Sequence record: NC_104190.1 | DNA length: 64,000 nt | Reading direction: 5' to 3' (one strand) | Origin: Escherichia phage IME178 | Part shown: piece after piece, positions 2,338 to 39,888 of the stretch | Layout of the letters: each line of letters starts with the position of its first letter | Numbering within the stretch: the stretch's first letter is position 1 | Notes under the pieces: generated by a model | Told to the model about the DNA's origin: nothing | The model's input: the letters and a program-made list of their open reading frames with translations, nothing else | Database searches by the model: none | Made by a program: the position numbers and the translations under genes

Positions 2338-5127
2338 GTGTTCTCAATCCTACAAGGTCATGCAGGATTTCATCGCGATTTAGCCACAGGCAATTGGCGA
2401 GAAGTTAAAGCAGAAGATTATCTTTTTGCTAAAAGATTTTCCTCAAAGCATCCTGAAGGTAAACCAGCTTCAATGCCCTTCAAGTTTGATGTAATTGATG
2501 AAGTTGATCCTCAAACCCTAGTAGAAATGCTTCCTCTTATGAGACGTTTAACGTCTGACCCTCATATCGTTGCGGTACGAGGTAGATGTCTTGCACCTAA
2601 AAATAATGTGCGACGTAAGAAGGGCAACTTTAATGTATCTAACCCAAGTCATATAATTGCAATGGACGTGGATGGTATTGTGGATACAGGTGGTTGTAAC
2701 AAGTTTGATCTTGTTGGCATGGCTCGACATATTATTAGAATGTTAAATAGTATTAGTGAGGATATGTTTCCTCTTGATGCAGGGTTTATCGCTCATGCAT
2801 CGTCTTCGGCTGGGCTAAAACCAGGTATCCGAATGCACTTAATACTAGAATCTAATGTTAAAGTAACTCAGGGTCAAATCAAATTCTTATTTACATCTAT
2901 CAATGAAAGTAGTAGACAAAAGTATGGCTTTGATATTGCCGACTTAGCTTATTACTCTTCCGTACAGCTCCATTATTTTGCAGATCCGTTATTTACCGAT
3001 GGTATAGTAGATCCGTTTAAAGCGGAGGGTGCTTCACGTCTGGTATTTGTTAAAGGTTCTAAAGTAAATTTACCAAATAATCTGGTTGACTATGAAACAA
3101 CTAGAGGTGAGTTTAAGGAGGAGTTTTACTCTTTACTCGATCAAATTAAAGGTAAAAAAGCTGCCTCTGATAAAGTAGAGGAAACTATCAGCGAACTAGA
3201 AGAAGCTGAGGATGGGGTGTACTTGCGTATTATCCCCAAACTATACCATAGAGCATTAGAGGATGGTGTTGATTTTGCATGGCTAGAAAAAGAAATCCGT
3301 CCAGCCTTATCAGAATATATCGCAACTAAAGATAACAGTCGTAATATTCAAGATTACTTTAATAACGGTCGTAAACAGGCTCTGAAAGCATTTGTTAATA
3401 ATTCTAAACGCGATATACCTGATGTTTTAAAAGGTATTCCACTTAAAAAGCTAGAAACTAACTCCCTAGAAACTGATAACTTCTTGAAATTAAATACTGT
3501 GCCACCAGAAGGTTATATGACTTTTGTAAAAGCAAGTCTAGGTACAGGTAAAACCACGGCGGTTGTGCGTTGGTTAGATTCAGGAGTTATTAAAGGTAAT
3601 TTCTTAGCAATTACCAATACTAGAGCGCTGGTGTCTTCAAATGCTAAGAAATTCAGTGCAGGACAATATGATAAGTCTGTAGATATGCTTAATTTTAAGC
3701 GTGGTGCTATTGACCGTATGTCCACAACTATTCACTCTTTGCATAAGTTCAAGAGTTTTATTGGTCAAATTGATGCAATCTTTATCGATGAATGTGATGC
3801 TGTAATGAATGACCTGTTATTCGCCCCGGTTGTTAAACAACGTCGTGAGTGTATTCAGGTTCTTCGGGATATTCTTGCAACTGCAAAAATCATTATATTA
3901 TCAGATGGTGATATTAGTGCAGAAACAATTGAAGCATATGGTTCCTTGATTGAGTTTGATAAACCGGTTGCATTTTATAATCACCACCGTAAGATGTTGT
4001 CAAAAGCTCATGCTTATGAGTTCCCTGATGAATCCAGTATTTGGGTTGCACTTCAGACTTCTCTAGAGATGGGTGAGAAATCTATTCTGGTATCTGACTG
4101 TGGCCCTGATGAGCTGAATGAGAAGGGCATGGCATTACGTCGTAATACGGGTGCGTTAGTTAAGGAAATCCACTCAAACTCTACGTCTGATGTAGATATT
4201 CGACGTATTCTGGATTACACAACTAATGAGCTAATTGACCAACAAATTGATTGCTTATTATGTAGTCCATCCGTAACTAGTGGTGTTGACTTCAACTATT
4301 TTGATAACGTATTCGTTATTACTAGAACCAGCAACCAAGCGCCAAACATGCGTTTCCAAGCAATCAGGCGCGACCGTGGTGCTCAGAACATCTATTATTT
4401 TATTGATAAATCTACGAGTGGATTCTCCGCAGGTTCTGAACAATATAACATTGATGAAGGTTGGCTGGAGTTAGCACAGCAATTATACGCACGTCGCAGG
4501 GAGCTGGAATCTAGGAACTATACTAGTACTTTACGTTATTACTTGCTTGATCAGGGTGCAACTATTGATATTTTCAGTGAAAGCTGGGGAACTATCGAAG
4601 GTGCAGGCAAAGAGTATACAGAAGAGCGAATCAAAGCCATTTTGTATTCAACTCCTGATTATTGCGCTCCACGTCATGCGGATGCGTATGAAGCTAAACT
4701 ACTTCTTGTTCGCTACTATCATCTTGAGTCTATTAAAGATGTAACAGTTGAGCATGTTGAACAATATATCAAGGATAAACCGAATGATCGAGCTGCATTC
4801 TTCCATAAAATGCACGAGATGTTCTGGGAAGATATTAAGAAGTGTTCAAACGTCACTATCAAACCATTCATAGAAGCTCTGAAAGGTAAGAAGAAAGATT
4901 TCTTCCTTAAAACAGGTCAGAGTGCTAACCCAAAATATGCGAGAATGTATCTTGGTATGATGGGTATTGGTAAGGATATGAACACTGAAAATATTGTAGA
5001 CTGGTACAGAACCTATTGTAAAATCGAGTGTATGCCAATCCCATATAAGTTTATGACTGATGAGGAGAAACATATGCATGATGAAGCAATGGCAGAGCTA
5101 GGTGCTAGAAATGACAGTGAAGAATAA
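2338..5127 (+). CDS. putative primase-helicase: AEP-like primase domain fused to P-loop NTPase
   Basis: Long ORF (track 2260..5127); likely start GTG 2338 after RBS AGGAG. N-terminal IIAMDVDGI and GIRMHLIL resemble AEP primase motifs I/II; Walker A GTGKT and Walker B IFIDECD follow. Confidence 0.65.
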   Translation: MFSILQGHAGFHRDLATGNWREVKAEDYLFAKRFSSKHPEGKPASMPFKFDVIDEVDPQTLVEMLPLMRRLTSDPHIVAVRGRCLAPKNNVRRKKGNFNVSNPSHIIAMDVDGIVDTGGCNKFDLVGMARHIIRMLNSISEDMFPLDAGFIAHASSSAGLKPGIRMHLILESNVKVTQGQIKFLFTSINESSRQKYGFDIADLAYYSSVQLHYFADPLFTDGIVDPFKAEGASRLVFVKGSKVNLPNNLVDYETTRGEFKEEFYSLLDQIKGKKAASDKVEETISELEEAEDGVYLRIIPKLYHRALEDGVDFAWLEKEIRPALSEYIATKDNSRNIQDYFNNGRKQALKAFVNNSKRDIPDVLKGIPLKKLETNSLETDNFLKLNTVPPEGYMTFVKASLGTGKTTAVVRWLDSGVIKGNFLAITNTRALVSSNAKKFSAGQYDKSVDMLNFKRGAIDRMSTTIHSLHKFKSFIGQIDAIFIDECDAVMNDLLFAPVVKQRRECIQVLRDILATAKIIILSDGDISAETIEAYGSLIEFDKPVAFYNHHRKMLSKAHAYEFPDESSIWVALQTSLEMGEKSILVSDCGPDELNEKGMALRRNTGALVKEIHSNSTSDVDIRRILDYTTNELIDQQIDCLLCSPSVTSGVDFNYFDNVFVITRTSNQAPNMRFQAIRRDRGAQNIYYFIDKSTSGFSAGSEQYNIDEGWLELAQQLYARRRELESRNYTSTLRYYLLDQGATIDIFSESWGTIEGAGKEYTEERIKAILYSTPDYCAPRHADAYEAKLLLVRYYHLESIKDVTVEHVEQYIKDKPNDRAAFFHKMHEMFWEDIKKCSNVTIKPFIEALKGKKKDFFLKTGQSANPKYARMYLGMMGIGKDMNTENIVDWYRTYCKIECMPIPYKFMTDEEKHMHDEAMAELGARNDSEE

Positions 5128-34393: not shown

Positions 34394-37300
34394 TTAAGAA
34401 TTTCCTAATGTTTTCAGACTAGCACCGTTCTCATTCAGAGCTAATTCTACTGCGTCTCTTAGAGCACTACTATTACTAGAAGCAAATTCTCTGAAACTTG
34501 CAGCATCCATAGCACTAATATTCAGGATGATAGGTCTTCCTGAAGTTGAGTTAGATGAAGTTTTTAGCTCATCATTAGGTGTAGCTTTCATAGGAACCAT
34601 AGGGGTAACTACTTCTGTACCATGCTCACCCATTTGATAGCTAACCCCAGGGTACATATTACCACCCTCAGCACGAGGAACGAAGGAGTTAGCACCGCCT
34701 ATACCTTTATCGCCTCGAATATAAGATAATTCACCTGCGTTAGCAGACATAGACACATCTATATTCTTTTGACGCTCTCCTAAGGTTAAGTAACTAGTTG
34801 TATCCGCTCCAGAATCTGCAATACTTGACATACCAGATGCAGAAGATGCTTGAGCAAGAGCTAAGGCACCTGCCAAACCTGCCGCCACCATCAAAGGAAT
34901 AGAGAACGGGTACGGTACAGCTGTCGCCGCTTGCATTACAGCTACTGCAGTTTGGATGATGATCTGCTTCTTAGCTGCGTCTTGTTGAATCTTCAACTTT
35001 TCAGCTTCTAGTTTCTTCAACTTAGCTTTAGATGCTTCTGATTTACCATCACGTTTCTGCTCTGCTGCAATAGCCTGATCAATTGCACTAACCTGTTGAC
35101 TAGTACTATATTGAATCATAGAGGCCACAGTCTGCATACCTGCTGCGATCGTGGAAGTAGTGTCTAAAGACCCCATAGAGAACTGAATCATAGCATTGGT
35201 TAAATTACCCATGCTTTGAGCTACAGCAGTTGCTTCGGAATTTAACTCAGATAGTTTAGAAATTGCCTGATCATAAGAAGCCATTCTATTTCCCATATCA
35301 GCAAAATCTTTATCTTCTCCAGATAGTCCAGTTGTAGGAGTGTACACAGCACCTAAAGAAGATCCAACAGAAGCTTGCATCTCCGCATTTCTCTGTGCCC
35401 TTAAACCTGCTAGTTGTGCCCTAGTTTCAGCTATCTTTTTATTATATTCCGCTTGTGCCGCAGCATTACCTAATGTTTTCTGCTTTAAGTCTTCATATAA
35501 TTTTAGCTGTTCCTGTAAGCGCTCCGCATTTCCCATTAATGGTTTAGCAGTAAATTGTCTTTGCTGTTCTTCCTCTCTACCAGCAGCCATTGAAGCAATC
35601 TGATCTTGGCGGAATTTCCAGATTTCACGTTCAATTTGGGCTTGAGCACGTCTAGACTGTTCCGCCTCTTTCTGTTTATCAGCTTGTTTTGTGTACCATT
35701 CGTACTTCTCTTTTTCAACGGTCAATTCAAGATTTAACTGTGCTAGACGATACTGAGTATCTGTCATAGTACGGTTATTTAAGAGGGCTATCTCACGATC
35801 TACACCCAGAATTTTATCTGTGTAATCCTTAACCTTCTTCTGAGCCTCCATACCCTGATTGGTAAGTTTAAGTTTCTCCAGCTGAATTTTTTCAATTTCT
35901 TTCTCAACAGCTTTATTTCCCTGATTAGTTTGAAGTACACGGCGTAAAGCAGCTTCTTGCTCTTCTAACTGTTGGAGTTCTAAACGCCTACCGGCTTCCT
36001 GTGCCTTTTCTTTATCTTTAGTTTGATTGTATACGTCAGCTATCTTCTGTTGAACTGCTAACTGGTTCTTAGTCTCATTACCAGTTAGTTTAACGTACTC
36101 AGATAAGGCCTGAGACGCAGTTTTCATTTCAGACAGAGTATTGTAGCCTAGGTTAAGATTTTTAACATATTCATCAGCACTCTTACCAGTACCTAGAGAT
36201 AGAGATTCTATGTTTTTTATAGCATCTGCTAAAGTAGCACTAGTTTTAGCAGCAGTATCTGTATTCTGAGCAACGTTCTGTATATCATTAGCTAAGTCAC
36301 TAGCAGTTTTCTTAGTCTGATTGTACGCTTTCTGCTGCTCAGTTAGTCCTTTTAATACAGTAGAGTTAAAATCGTATACAGCGCCAGGATCTGTAGAATC
36401 TCTCTGTAGATTAATCTGTTTCTGAAACTGTGGATTAGCTTTTGCAGCAGCAGCTCCAGCAGCTTGATACGCTGATTTCCAAGCATTGAGGTTCTCTGTA
36501 GAATCCTCTACTTCCTTACCAAGTCTAGTTACTTGTAGACCCATAGCTGCAGTTTCTGCTACAAATTGCTTATTGGCCTCCGAAGCACCTGCTGCTGCAA
36601 GACCAATAGGAATACCTTCGCCAACTTGACGTATAGCTAGTTTTGTATAGAAATCTGCTTGTTCCATTCGTTTATCGAACTCAGATTTTAGCTTATTACG
36701 CTTATCAAGAGATTCCTTATACATATCTAGAGCTTTATTATAGCCTTCTTCAGAAGCAGCTAAACTTAAAGCAACAGCACCAACGTTGGTAGGGTCTATC
36801 TGTCTATTAGTTTTTTCTTGAGCTCTAGCTGCCTCCGCAGATATAGAAGCCTGAGATGTATAAAATACTGTATTGATAGCATCAATTACCGGCCCTAAAT
36901 ACTTAGCAGCAGCTTGTTGTATTTTTCTTAGTGCAGCATCTGCATTAGCAGCAAATTGCTCCCATGGAGTTGCACGTAGTACTTCATCTAGGTAGCCAAA
37001 CCGCTTAGTAGATTCAGCAATTACCGCGTTAGCGTATGCTTGTTGTTTCTGGAAAGTGGTAAGACTATTAACATTATATGTTATACCTGTGTTTGCAGCA
37101 TTTAACTGTTTAACATAATCAGCATATGCGTCATTAAGACGGATGGTGACACCAAGTTCATCCAGAAGTTCGATTTCTTGTTTAGATACGCCCTTAATTA
37201 CACGGTTAAGTGCATCAGTCATATCAACACCAAGAACAGCAGCAGCACGACGAGCTACTAAACCAAATTTATTAAGTTGTTCGGCATCAAATCCATAAGC

Positions 37301-38074
37301 AGATGCTGAAGATGCCTGTCTCATTGCTTCCTCAAAAGAAATAGCATATCCAGCAGCTTCTTGTAGTGATCTAGCAAGGGTCTGAACAGGAGTACCTGTC
37401 TGAGTACCTACTATAACACCAAATTTTTCTAGACGATTTAGCTGATCACCTAGTTTAAGTTGTTCAAATGCTGATTGCAAAACGAAGATGTTGGAAGCAA
37501 GAGCTGCGTACATAATAGGTAAACTACCACCGATCTTAGCCATTGCCGCAAAATCACGAGTTGCACCACGTGCTGAACCAGAAGTATTACCAATAGCTCT
37601 AGAAGCTCTACCAGCGGCACCAGCAGTATCATTAAAACCCCTAGCTGTGCCACCTAATGCTCTATTAGTATCATATAATCTATCCTGGACTTTTTCTGTT
37701 GCAGCTGCAACATCATTACCCATTGTTTTAACAGATCTAGAAACTCCATCGAATCCAATTTCTAGTTTATCTGTTACTTCAATAAGCTGGATAGCCAGGT
37801 AGTCTAGCTTATCACCAATACCATCAATGGATTTAGTGATACCAGCCATACCCCTACTAGCTTGCATTTTAGTAAGACTTTTCGCTGCTCTGTCTGCTGC
37901 CCTCTCAATGGAATAAAGAGTTCTGGGCATTTTACCTAACTGCTCATTTGTCAGTTCGGAAGCAGCAGCAGCATTTTCCAACGCATCAGATACGTTTTCA
38001 ATAGACTTTGCAGTACGAGTTGCCCCCTTCTGTTTAACGTCTATTAGTAATTCTCGTATTAGCTTATCAGTCAT
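34394..38074 (-). CDS. tail tape-measure protein (pb2-like)
   Basis: 1226-aa ORF, coiled-coil rich with hydrophobic segments and Gly-rich C-terminal region; sits between chaperone and tip genes. Confidence 0.8.
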   Translation of the reverse strand: MTDKLIRELLIDVKQKGATRTAKSIENVSDALENAAAASELTNEQLGKMPRTLYSIERAADRAAKSLTKMQASRGMAGITKSIDGIGDKLDYLAIQLIEVTDKLEIGFDGVSRSVKTMGNDVAAATEKVQDRLYDTNRALGGTARGFNDTAGAAGRASRAIGNTSGSARGATRDFAAMAKIGGSLPIMYAALASNIFVLQSAFEQLKLGDQLNRLEKFGVIVGTQTGTPVQTLARSLQEAAGYAISFEEAMRQASSASAYGFDAEQLNKFGLVARRAAAVLGVDMTDALNRVIKGVSKQEIELLDELGVTIRLNDAYADYVKQLNAANTGITYNVNSLTTFQKQQAYANAVIAESTKRFGYLDEVLRATPWEQFAANADAALRKIQQAAAKYLGPVIDAINTVFYTSQASISAEAARAQEKTNRQIDPTNVGAVALSLAASEEGYNKALDMYKESLDKRNKLKSEFDKRMEQADFYTKLAIRQVGEGIPIGLAAAGASEANKQFVAETAAMGLQVTRLGKEVEDSTENLNAWKSAYQAAGAAAAKANPQFQKQINLQRDSTDPGAVYDFNSTVLKGLTEQQKAYNQTKKTASDLANDIQNVAQNTDTAAKTSATLADAIKNIESLSLGTGKSADEYVKNLNLGYNTLSEMKTASQALSEYVKLTGNETKNQLAVQQKIADVYNQTKDKEKAQEAGRRLELQQLEEQEAALRRVLQTNQGNKAVEKEIEKIQLEKLKLTNQGMEAQKKVKDYTDKILGVDREIALLNNRTMTDTQYRLAQLNLELTVEKEKYEWYTKQADKQKEAEQSRRAQAQIEREIWKFRQDQIASMAAGREEEQQRQFTAKPLMGNAERLQEQLKLYEDLKQKTLGNAAAQAEYNKKIAETRAQLAGLRAQRNAEMQASVGSSLGAVYTPTTGLSGEDKDFADMGNRMASYDQAISKLSELNSEATAVAQSMGNLTNAMIQFSMGSLDTTSTIAAGMQTVASMIQYSTSQQVSAIDQAIAAEQKRDGKSEASKAKLKKLEAEKLKIQQDAAKKQIIIQTAVAVMQAATAVPYPFSIPLMVAAGLAGALALAQASSASGMSSIADSGADTTSYLTLGERQKNIDVSMSANAGELSYIRGDKGIGGANSFVPRAEGGNMYPGVSYQMGEHGTEVVTPMVPMKATPNDELKTSSNSTSGRPIILNISAMDAASFREFASSNSSALRDAVELALNENGASLKTLGNS

Positions 38075-38156
38075 GTTTTATTTTTCCCAATAAAAAGGCT
38101 CTGGGCAAATCACCCAGAGCCAAGCCTCATCGTGGAACGCCCATTGGAGGAAAATT

Positions 38157-38525
38157 TTACCGTGCACGAGATCTAGCATGTGGCTTAACGTTAGGAATCC
38201 TCCCGTTTTGCGGTTTATGCTTCTCAGCACGTTTACGTGCAGCATCTACAGCTTTAGCATCAAATATATTGATAATGTGTAGAACAAATTCTTTTTCTAT
38301 GGGATCAGTAATCCCATAAATATCAAATAAAACACCTAGAGCAGCTTTGTCTTTACCTATAAAGATAGGAAAGTCACCCGGTATGAAACAGTCAATCAGA
38401 CTGTTATAAATATTCATACTAATAGATACAATAGGTGGAAAATCCTCAAGTTCAACGGGCATAGCCTTTGGATCAGGTTCTATACCCATTGACTCGCAAA
38501 GTATTAAATATTGTTGTTTAGTCAT
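38157..38525 (-). CDS. tail assembly chaperone, downstream frame (possible G-T fusion segment)
   Basis: 122-aa frame is open upstream to about 38600 and overlaps the end of the 134-aa ORF by about 23 nt in a +1 offset. Confidence 0.5.
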   Translation of the reverse strand: MTKQQYLILCESMGIEPDPKAMPVELEDFPPIVSISMNIYNSLIDCFIPGDFPIFIGKDKAALGVLFDIYGITDPIEKEFVLHIINIFDAKAVDAARKRAEKHKPQNGRIPNVKPHARSRAR

Positions 38526-38586
38526 TTTAGATGCTGAGCTTTTAATACATTTGTCTGCAAAATCAGCAACAGCATCTAGAAGTTCT

Positions 38587-38991
38587 TTACGCTTTTGAGC
38601 TACGAAAAGTGTCTAAGTGGAACACTGTCTGGTTGATCCAAGAATCAAACGCAGCAGAGTTCTGCATGAGCATTACAGCATTGTCGCGGCTAAAAGGAAC
38701 TTCAGTAGCAGGATCAGCATCTGTTTCAATCAGCATCAGTTTTTCAACGTCACCTACAGTCAAACCAGTCCAACCTTTAATAGCTGCGTCAACAAATGCT
38801 TCAATGAACTTATCATCATCCTGGACTTGCATCAGCGTACCATTAACCCATTCATCACGTTTAGCAGAAGAAATAACACGTTTAGAGGTAGCACGAGACA
38901 TATAGTTAAGTTCTAGTTTAAAGTTCGGCATACCTGGGTAGGAAAGAGTAATAGTACGAGTATCAAGAGTAATATCTTTTAAATTAATCAT
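38587..38991 (-). CDS. tail assembly chaperone (G-like)
   Basis: 134-aa ORF immediately upstream of the tape-measure operon position. Confidence 0.55.
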   Translation of the reverse strand: MINLKDITLDTRTITLSYPGMPNFKLELNYMSRATSKRVISSAKRDEWVNGTLMQVQDDDKFIEAFVDAAIKGWTGLTVGDVEKLMLIETDADPATEVPFSRDNAVMLMQNSAAFDSWINQTVFHLDTFRSSKA

Positions 38992-39888
38992 TTTTTAATT
39001 TCTCCAAAGAAATCTATTCTCACTGGGTCTGAAGAAGCAGTAGGTATAATATCCCACTCAACTCTATACACATCTGAGAGATCTAGGCGTTTTGTAATAC
39101 GTGCTGAAGGAAAATCTATAGAAATATTATTATTTCTTATATTTAAAGGTACATCTGTCTCCGGTTCGATATTGTAAACCATATCTCCTGCAAAACGTTT
39201 TTAAGTAATATAGAGAAATGGTTGCCGAAGCATTCATTTCATTTACATAAGCTCTTTTATTATTATAAATTTTATTTATATCAAAAACACTCTTATCTTC
39301 TCTCCAAGAGCACTGCTGCTGGAAAGATAAGGAGGCAGAGATAAGACCGGGTAAGATGCTACCATTAGTAGAAGCTATTACTGGGCTATAAGACATTACT
39401 TCACCCTGTATAATAGAAGCTGCTTCTCTATAGGTAGATACTTCTGAGAATTTCCCAGACTCAATACCAACATTAAGAATTGGTATGTTCTTATCTAAAG
39501 AAAAATCTACCGTAGATACATAACAGTTTTCAAAATATACACAGTTACTATCTTTGTTTACTATATAGATATTGAATATAATAGGTTCAATATTACTACT
39601 ATATAGTGGGAGTAAGAAAGTATTACCTTTTCTATCAAAACCTAACCATTCAAAGAAGTTAGCCTCTGTAAGAGTATTACTGAAATTTACGGCTAGAGAG
39701 ATAGAAGAGGGGGTTTGAGCATTTATAATAGAGTCTGCATAGTTAGTTCTACGATGAACAGTCCTACGAAGAGTCTTGAATTCCTCGTAGGAAGTCTGTA
39801 TATCATAGTTTGATAGGGCATCAAAATGAAATGCCCTACCATCATACTCAACTATAACTTTTGACTCTCTCATTAGAGAGTAGTACAT
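38988..39888 (-). CDS. tail protein p140-like; frame break near 39130-39182
   Basis: Track ORFs 39888..39130 (252 aa) and 39182..38988 (64 aa) overlap in different frames; span about 300 codons (T5 p140 is 298 aa). Confidence 0.5.

Follow-up and report, generated by a model that had tools for sequence, protein, structure and literature searches.

A probable programmed +1 frameshift joining the two tail assembly chaperone frames of a T5-like phage

The tail assembly chaperones of phage lambda, gpG and gpGT, provide the closest precedent for the locus analysed here (Xu, Hendrix and Duda 2004). In lambda, two small open reading frames (ORFs) separate the tail tube genes from the tape measure gene; T overlaps the 3' end of G and lacks a ribosome binding site of its own, and a -1 shift on the heptamer G_GGA_AAG, a few codons before the stop of G, converts a first product of about 135–140 amino acids (aa) into a fusion of about 277–279 aa. 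We examined the corresponding pair of ORFs in a stretch of 64,000 nucleotides (nt) from Escherichia phage IME178 (NC_104190.1), hereafter the window. The pair resembles lambda G and T in position, in product sizes, in the overlap, in the lack of a separate ribosome binding site for the second ORF and in the closeness of the proposed shift to the stop of the first. It differs from lambda in that the offset is +1 and the proposed site is UUU_CGU, in that neither sequence was found to resemble lambda G or T, and in that the fusion is here predicted from sequence. The names G and T are used for the homologues of T5.143 and T5.142 by analogy with lambda. Our conclusion is that this is probably a chaperone pair of the G/GT type, with a trans-frame fusion made at UUU_CGU by programmed +1 frameshifting.

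Sites of this kind are known from other settings. The +1 site of influenza A PA-X is UCC_UUU_CGU (PMC3498833, PMC5009743), and UUU_CGN is the prevalent +1 motif in plant amalgaviruses (PMC5052127). The phage locus shares with these systems the UUU_CGN core, a second ORF in the +1 frame, a proposed slip of the P-site tRNA-Phe from UUU to UUC and the lack of any requirement for downstream structure; one metagenomic relative of the phage has TCC_TTT_CGA, close to the PA-X site. It differs in that those sites are read by eukaryotic ribosomes and there CGU is rare, whereas E. coli and this phage use it commonly, and in that the E-site codon of the phage site is not conserved. In HF1-group haloviruses a conserved TTT-CGC has been proposed as the place of a +1 shift in the tail chaperone genes (PMC7230728). 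In these haloarchaeal myoviruses and in HSTV-2, as here, the motif lies beside the stop of the first ORF and the case is based on comparison (PMC7230728, PMC5009743); however, the HF1 group is archaeal, has contractile tails and is not detectably homologous, whereas the present locus belongs to a bacterial siphophage family that has -1 homologues. In bacteria UUU_Ynn is prone to +1 shifting, as at the Yersinia YopN-TyeA site and at UUU_Y in E. coli argI (PMC5009743, PMC4914553). Those cases have enterobacterial ribosomes in common with ours, although YopN-TyeA is a cellular type III secretion regulator and its site lies in a T-rich stretch and is not UUU_CGN. Recoding other than -1 also occurs in phage tail genes, in gpGT of phage Mu (-2) and in Listeria PSA and Bacillus SPP1 (+1), at sites different from the present one. 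PSA and SPP1 shift at CCC beside a stop codon, and the proteins affected are tube or capsid proteins, not a chaperone. Full-text literature searches, whose coverage is incomplete so that a prior description is possible, turned up no proposal of a +1 frameshift in T5-like phages. Both the function and the shift cassette have precedents, and the two have been proposed to occur together in archaeal viruses; for a bacterial phage family with a classic model, the combination appears to be new.

The window comes from a T5-like siphophage and is 97.6% identical over the query region to Escherichia phage vB_EcoS_MM-1 (Tequintavirus). All features described below lie on its minus strand. The G-type chaperone gene (38587–38991), a homologue of T5.143, has a good Shine–Dalgarno (SD) sequence, encodes a protein of 134 aa (15.1 kDa) and matches phrog_313 (E 9e-34). 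Its 3' end reads ...CAC TTA GAC ACT TTT CGT AGC TCA AAA GCG TAA and the protein ends ...HLDTFRSSKA. The T frame is +1 relative to G and is open from 38612, after a TAG at 38615–38613, to a stop at 38157, which gives a full +1-frame ORF of 151 codons plus stop (38157–38612); it shares 23 nt with G (38590–38612, ACACTTTTCGTAGCTCAAAAGCG). In relatives the second ORF is annotated from an ATG at 38525 (38157–38525; 122 aa, homologous to T5.142), 61 nt beyond the TAA of G. This linker (38526–38586; peptide ...KELLDAVADFADKCIKSSASK) is annotated as intergenic but behaves as +1-frame coding sequence. A sequence-only reading of the locus had described the second frame as open for about 23 nt upstream of its ATG; that figure holds for the overlap with G, but the open stretch before the ATG is 87 nt.

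The same reading had noted a +1 offset and the lack of an X_XXY_YYZ heptamer, and had taken the ORFs for a G/GT-type pair that precedes the tape measure gene and is possibly fused through a programmed frameshift. Comparison bore out the first two points and, as far as sequence can speak to it, strongly supports the third. The +1 offset recurs in 16 of 16 divergent lineages of the +1 type that we examined, T5 itself included, and neither the window nor any +1 lineage has an X_XXY_YYZ heptamer in the 0 frame of its overlap. A comparison with the T5 chaperone genes, which that reading had proposed, shows T5.143 and T5.142 in the same layout, and gene lengths or frames and the gap between the genes are the same in T5, VEc33, JLBYU40, MM-1, Stitch and rokbiter. 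Across 36 close genomes (34 of them distinct) the frame layout is identical and both genes align without gaps. The +1 layout is far beyond chance.

We propose that the shift site is the UUU_CGU within the overlap (38602–38607), which had been quoted but not identified as such before: Phe129 is encoded by UUU at 38607–38605, the C at 38604 would be skipped and GUA would be the next codon in the +1 frame. In all 16 +1 lineages the aligned Phe codon near the end of G is TTT followed by C; TTC is never found. The codon after TTT is CGN in 15 of them, never AGR, and CAG in one. With the preceding codon, the site is ACT TTT CGT in Tequintavirus/Epseptimavirus and in Sugarlandvirus, ACC TTT CGT in Pantoea AAS21, AAC TTT CGA in Pogseptimavirus and Thalassavirus, AAC TTT CGT in Novosibvirus and AAC TTT CGT TAA in Vibrio 70E37-3. 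Shenzhenvirus has TTT CGA, seven metagenomic representatives from separate 50%-identity clusters have TTT CGA, CGT or CGC, and a further metagenomic locus has TTT CAG. The surroundings of the site are variable: the codon before TTT differs among lineages (ACU, ACC, AAC, CAG, UCC and others), as does the one that follows CGN, and the G tail is 0 to 17 residues long. The overlap of Vibrio 70E37-3 is just 11 nt (ACAACTTTCGT), and the shift is therefore confined there to the TTT CGT spot.

Codon usage was assessed against the window's own 46 long ORFs. Phe-Arg dipeptides in these ORFs are encoded by TTC_CGN 14 times versus 7 times by TTT_CGN, and in-frame TTT_Ynn is depleted (75 observed versus 121 expected), so the persistence of TTT at the site is not the background expectation. 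The depletion itself fits avoidance of the +1-shift-prone UUU_Y in ordinary genes. Only one of the seven in-frame TTT_CGN sites of the window, that at 38607–38602, opens onto a long homologous +1 ORF (148 codons); the other six open onto no meaningful +1 ORF, one of them leading into 92 codons inside a 715-aa gene that give no hint of a real product. The locus therefore has the cassette of UUU_CGN systems, a 0-frame UUU followed by CGN with the +1 ORF open, conserved at synonymous positions.

The Aeromonas T5-like phages of Shenzhenvirus, Akh-2, vB_AdhS_TS3 and AhSzq-1, have many in-frame TAG codons in this region (G has 1 to 6 of them, the T linker 2), and in GenBank their chaperone region is unannotated or given as fragments. 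These codons suggest that TAG is a sense codon in Shenzhenvirus late genes. Akh-2 was considered as an exception on account of stops in its +1 frame, and was rejected as one: all of the interrupting codons are TAG and they interrupt G as well. Because reading TAG as sense clears the stops, Akh-2 conforms to the +1 layout.

A second group of relatives has the pair in the opposite frame relation. These are uncultured relatives from IMG/VR and other metagenomes, in which the T ORF is homologous (blastp E 1e-8 to 1e-18) and lies in the -1 frame; synteny around the chaperone pair is conserved in metagenomic relatives. The G proteins of these relatives are 28–39% identical to that of Vibrio PG07, and one of the contigs is 105 kb long, the size of T5. 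At the codon that aligns with the Phe codon of the +1 lineages, 15 loci have A_AAT_TTT or A_AAT_TTC, so that the classic heptamer missing from the +1 lineages is found here as A_AAU_UUY at the homologous codon; a U-run stands there in the others, as GTT TTT T in one locus and TCT TTT A in five. The offset of the second frame, -1 or +1, thus goes with the motif at one Phe codon without exception, a pattern that is hard to explain unless ribosomes switch frame at that codon in both groups. In a neighbour-joining tree of G proteins the -1 clade falls among +1 lineages. We do not assign an ancestral state, -1 or +1, because the G proteins are short and the rooting is uncertain. In the single-protein scans of IMG/VR the PG07 G query was productive and the Klebsiella, Proteus, Quinn and 70E37-3 G queries added few loci.

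The linker carries a coding signal in the shifted frame. Among the 34 distinct Tequintavirus and Epseptimavirus sequences, its variable sites fall at codon positions 1, 2 and 3 of the T frame in the numbers 5/2/15, compared with 27/4/89 in the body of G (G frame) and 18/13/76 in the body of T (T frame). Judged by this substitution pattern, which resembles that of both gene bodies, the linker evolves as +1-frame coding sequence. Downstream of TTT the overlap has only two variable sites, both third positions in the T frame; the changes are synonymous in that frame but replace Ser by Pro and Ala by Thr in G. Among close relatives the linker peptide, VAQKRKELLDAVADFADKCIKSSASK, hardly varies. When the extended T ORF was used as a tblastn query, alignments to Pantoea, Klebsiella, Vibrio and Proteus phages began at residues 1–3, before the annotated Met, with 35–52% identity, and conceptual fusions built for eight genera are collinear across the junction, where Phe129 is invariant. 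As in lambda, the region between shift site and T body is under coding constraint in the shifted frame.

The annotated start of T is, by comparison with its neighbours, poorly equipped. The 22 nt preceding ATG 38525 pair with the anti-SD sequence at -0.1 kcal/mol, versus -4 to -9 kcal/mol in 11 of 12 neighbouring genes, and no ATG, GTG or TTG occurs between 38612 and 38526 in the window and its close relatives. The Met codon is conserved only in Markadamsvirinae, Novosibvirus and one Vibrio phage and is replaced by a codon for Val, Ile, Leu or Phe in Pantoea AAS21, Klebsiella Spivey, Vibrio PG07 and Vibrio Quinn. In most lineages the nearest canonical start past the junction is 73–145 nt away; the largest distance is that of Pantoea AAS21, in which it falls within conserved sequence, and a closer GTG is present in two lineages (Klebsiella, +4; PG07, +25). 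Because the annotated start is weak and not conserved, the annotations of T in relatives diverge, with products of 58, 105 and 153 aa. The lambda arrangement, in which T overlaps the 3' end of G in another frame and has no conserved start or ribosome binding site of its own, is thus found here too.

A conserved 9-bp hairpin, UAGAUGCUG ... CAGCAUCUA, lies inside the linker (38528–38578; arms 38578–38570 with 38536–38528). It has a z-score of -2.4 and forms in all 21 distinct Markadamsvirinae sequences folded, with all pairs standard in the 15 that were counted; the pair changes are one compensatory U:A to C:G and one G:U, and covariation support is weak (39 of 500 shuffles). The hairpin is not clearly present in genera outside Markadamsvirinae. 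It begins 29 nt 3' of the UUU, which is too far for the usual kind of frameshift stimulator. Its 3' arm ends 3 nt before ATG 38525, and the hairpin may therefore suppress internal initiation by masking the internal ATG of T.

In the mechanism that we propose, most ribosomes would read G to its TAA and produce the 134-aa G protein. In a small fraction, the P-site peptidyl-tRNA-Phe would slip by +1 from UUU (38607–38605) onto UUC, GUA would be decoded next, and the ribosome would read on in the +1 frame across linker and downstream ORF, with 148 residues from the shift site onwards contributed by that frame. The product would be a G–T fusion of 277 aa and 31.1 kDa in which ...HLDTF is followed directly by VAQKRKELL.... 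By analogy with lambda G/GT, we expect the level of the fusion to be low, and its G part would bind the tape measure protein while its T part would recruit the tail tube protein. Predicted peptides spanning the junction are DTFVAQKRKELL for AspN and DNAVMLMQNSAAFDSWINQTVFHLDTFVAQK for trypsin (residues 103–133, 3542.9 Da), and a stand-alone T protein made from ATG 38525 would have a computed mass of 13.75 kDa. The frame layout and its conservation, the constraint on the linker, the invariance of UUU_C and the -1 heptamer at the same codon are observations; from them we infer that ribosomes do shift here, in the +1 rather than the -2 direction and with some efficiency, and that the products act as chaperones.

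Several points weigh against this proposal. Every annotated GenBank or RefSeq record inspected (14 loci) gives the locus as separate genes with no slippage feature, and T5 and Sugarland have been reported to be without a predicted frameshift signal (PMC6256483, referring to Zivanovic 2014). The A-site codon is not rare: CGT is the commonest Arg codon of the window (300 of 668) and CGU is common in E. coli (20.2 per 1000; PMC3498833 Table 1), so that the A-site codon is not obviously 'hungry'. The stretch upstream of the UUU (CAC UUA GAC ACU) holds no SD-like stimulator and is not conserved, and no downstream structure was found at a functional distance from the UUU. When T5.142 cloned from the annotated ATG is produced alone from a plasmid, it is folded and active (PMC13056530), and a separate product is therefore physically possible. 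An AlphaFold2 single-sequence model of the fusion, with a predicted local distance difference test score of 44, was uninformative. A frameshift of the prfB type was also considered for the site and rejected, the A site being CGU and an SD-like element being lacking upstream.

Some of these points fit two independent genes as annotated, in which T would start at ATG 38525, no fusion would be made and the linker would be conserved for RNA structure or regulation: all annotations inspected follow this model, the 122-aa product functions alone, the linker does hold a conserved hairpin and no frameshift signal had been predicted. A linker kept for its RNA would, however, not account for third-position substitutions in the +1 frame together with amino-acid conservation across genera, and the start on which the model depends has no SD sequence and is not conserved, the first canonical start in Pantoea AAS21 being displaced far into conserved sequence. 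Nor would two independent genes lead one to expect a textbook heptamer at the same codon in the -1 relatives. We therefore regard this model as improbable, although it is the best placed of the alternatives.

If the linker is translated, T could still be made alone in its extended form of about 150 aa, by re-initiation after the stop of G or from a non-canonical start in the overlap. The G stop lies close to the site, as re-initiation would need, and some lineages have a GTG or TTG nearby, namely the two GTG codons of Klebsiella and PG07 mentioned above and an upstream TTG from which T of AAS21 is annotated. These candidate starts do not keep a constant position, none occurs from 38612 to 38526 in the window and its close relatives, and UUU_C, the one invariant feature, has no role in initiation; we consider this explanation very unlikely. 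A similarly small probability attaches to a fusion made by another route: ribosomes could slip by -2, as they do in phage Mu, or the polymerase could slip on the T-run during transcription. Shifts of +1 and -2 end in the same frame, and the window has TTTT within ACTTTTC. But three T are all that Vibrio, Proteus and several metagenomic lineages have (AAC TTT CG), with no codon two bases back on which tRNA-Phe could re-pair, and three or four T are too short for the usual polymerase slippage; re-pairing from UUU to UUC is perfect in every lineage, which favours +1. Finally, the suggestion of the sequence-only reading that an indel or error here disguises a standard -1 site can be rejected as next to impossible because the +1 offset is common to T5 and every Demerecviridae genus sampled and because alignment of 38157–38991 with MM-1, VEc33 and T5, the sequence check it had called for, shows no indel specific to the window; the window does carry 1-nt homopolymer differences just outside this interval (at ~39200 and ~38097).

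A programmed +1 frameshift at UUU_CGU would concern a large family. Phage records matching the query region at the DNA level number 441, of which 439 cover at least 80% of it, and homologues of the T ORF occur in about 900 phage genome records. A phmmer search of 1.84 billion representatives with the conceptual fusion returned 425 clusters at E < 1e-3. Among the best 150 of these no natural in-frame G–T fusion was found, all being separate G-type or T-type ORFs; many G alignments stop at residue 129–136 and some T alignments start at residue 128. The profile phrog_313, named 'tail assembly chaperone', is a single profile of 258 positions that G matches at positions 12–141 and T at 170–258, and T also matches phrog_3914, which bears the same name. 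Both T5.143 and T5.142 carry the RefSeq label 'tail assembly chaperone'. Neither the G nor the T protein matched Pfam in a local scan, a PDB profile search gave only a chance match (E 0.077), Rfam had nothing in 38050–39050 and a word-indexed protein search with the 277-aa fusion gave no matches. Precomputed Pfam labels, mostly weak, assign PF27119 (Phage_YdaY) to several metagenomic G homologues.

On balance, and with more reserve than for the window itself, we lean towards a broader picture in which all Demerecviridae and many uncultured relatives shift by +1 on UUU_CGN without a stimulator, a switch between -1 (A_AAU_UUY) and +1 has taken place at one Phe codon and T5.142 is present in infected cells mainly or only as the C-terminal domain of the fusion. 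UUU_CGN, a minimal cassette that serves on eukaryotic ribosomes (PA-X, amalgaviruses) and has been proposed for archaeal ones (HF1 haloviruses), would then be a universal +1 recoding signal. If this is so, the rule of two chaperones by frameshift would reach a family thought exceptional, in which T5 is the model phage and its chaperone is described in the searchable literature as lacking a frameshift signal. UUU_CGN would gain a natural bacterial example, open to genetic dissection in E. coli, and homologous pairs shifting by -1 or +1 at the same codon would be a natural experiment on how the direction of recoding evolves. There would also be consequences for phage defence. A 2026 study identified T5.142, treated as a stand-alone protein, as the direct trigger of the Schlafen nuclease RorSlfn5, with escape mutations D18G, D68G and I72T in T5.142 (PMC13056530). 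Were native T5.142 a domain of a low-abundance fusion, the reading of RorSlfn5 sensing and escape would change, with D18, D68 and I72 corresponding to residues 173, 223 and 227 of the fusion.

The tail genes around the pair are in the T5 order pb6, p140, G, T, terminator and pb2. The tail tube protein gene pb6 (41287–39893) is followed by the gene for p140, the baseplate tail tube protein (38988–39888), directly upstream of G. In MM-1, VEc33 and T5, p140 is a single ORF of 299 aa; in the window one extra A in an A-run at ~39198–39202 (AAAAA versus AAAA) breaks it into ORFs of 252 and 64 aa. Two explanations would fit the extra A: a sequencing error in the homopolymer, or a genuine frameshift mutation in a tail gene that is essential. 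In Salmonella phage GSW6 (614–1912 of the locus) GenBank fuses p140 and the G chaperone into one coding sequence of 1299 nt; in relatives of GSW6 these are two genes in different frames with an ATGA overlap, and the joined gene is likely to stem from an indel in the record. Downstream of T, an intrinsic terminator-like hairpin (38097–38121), annotated as a terminator in T5, precedes the tape measure protein gene, a pb2 homologue of 1226 aa (34394–38074); the T-tract of the terminator, at ~38097, is one T shorter in the window than in MM-1, VEc33 and T5. In T5 a 753-nt endonuclease gene, T5.141 (2436–3188 of the locus), separates the chaperone terminator from the tape measure gene. The window (38075–38096), MM-1 and VEc33 lack this gene, which looks like a mobile homing-endonuclease insertion.

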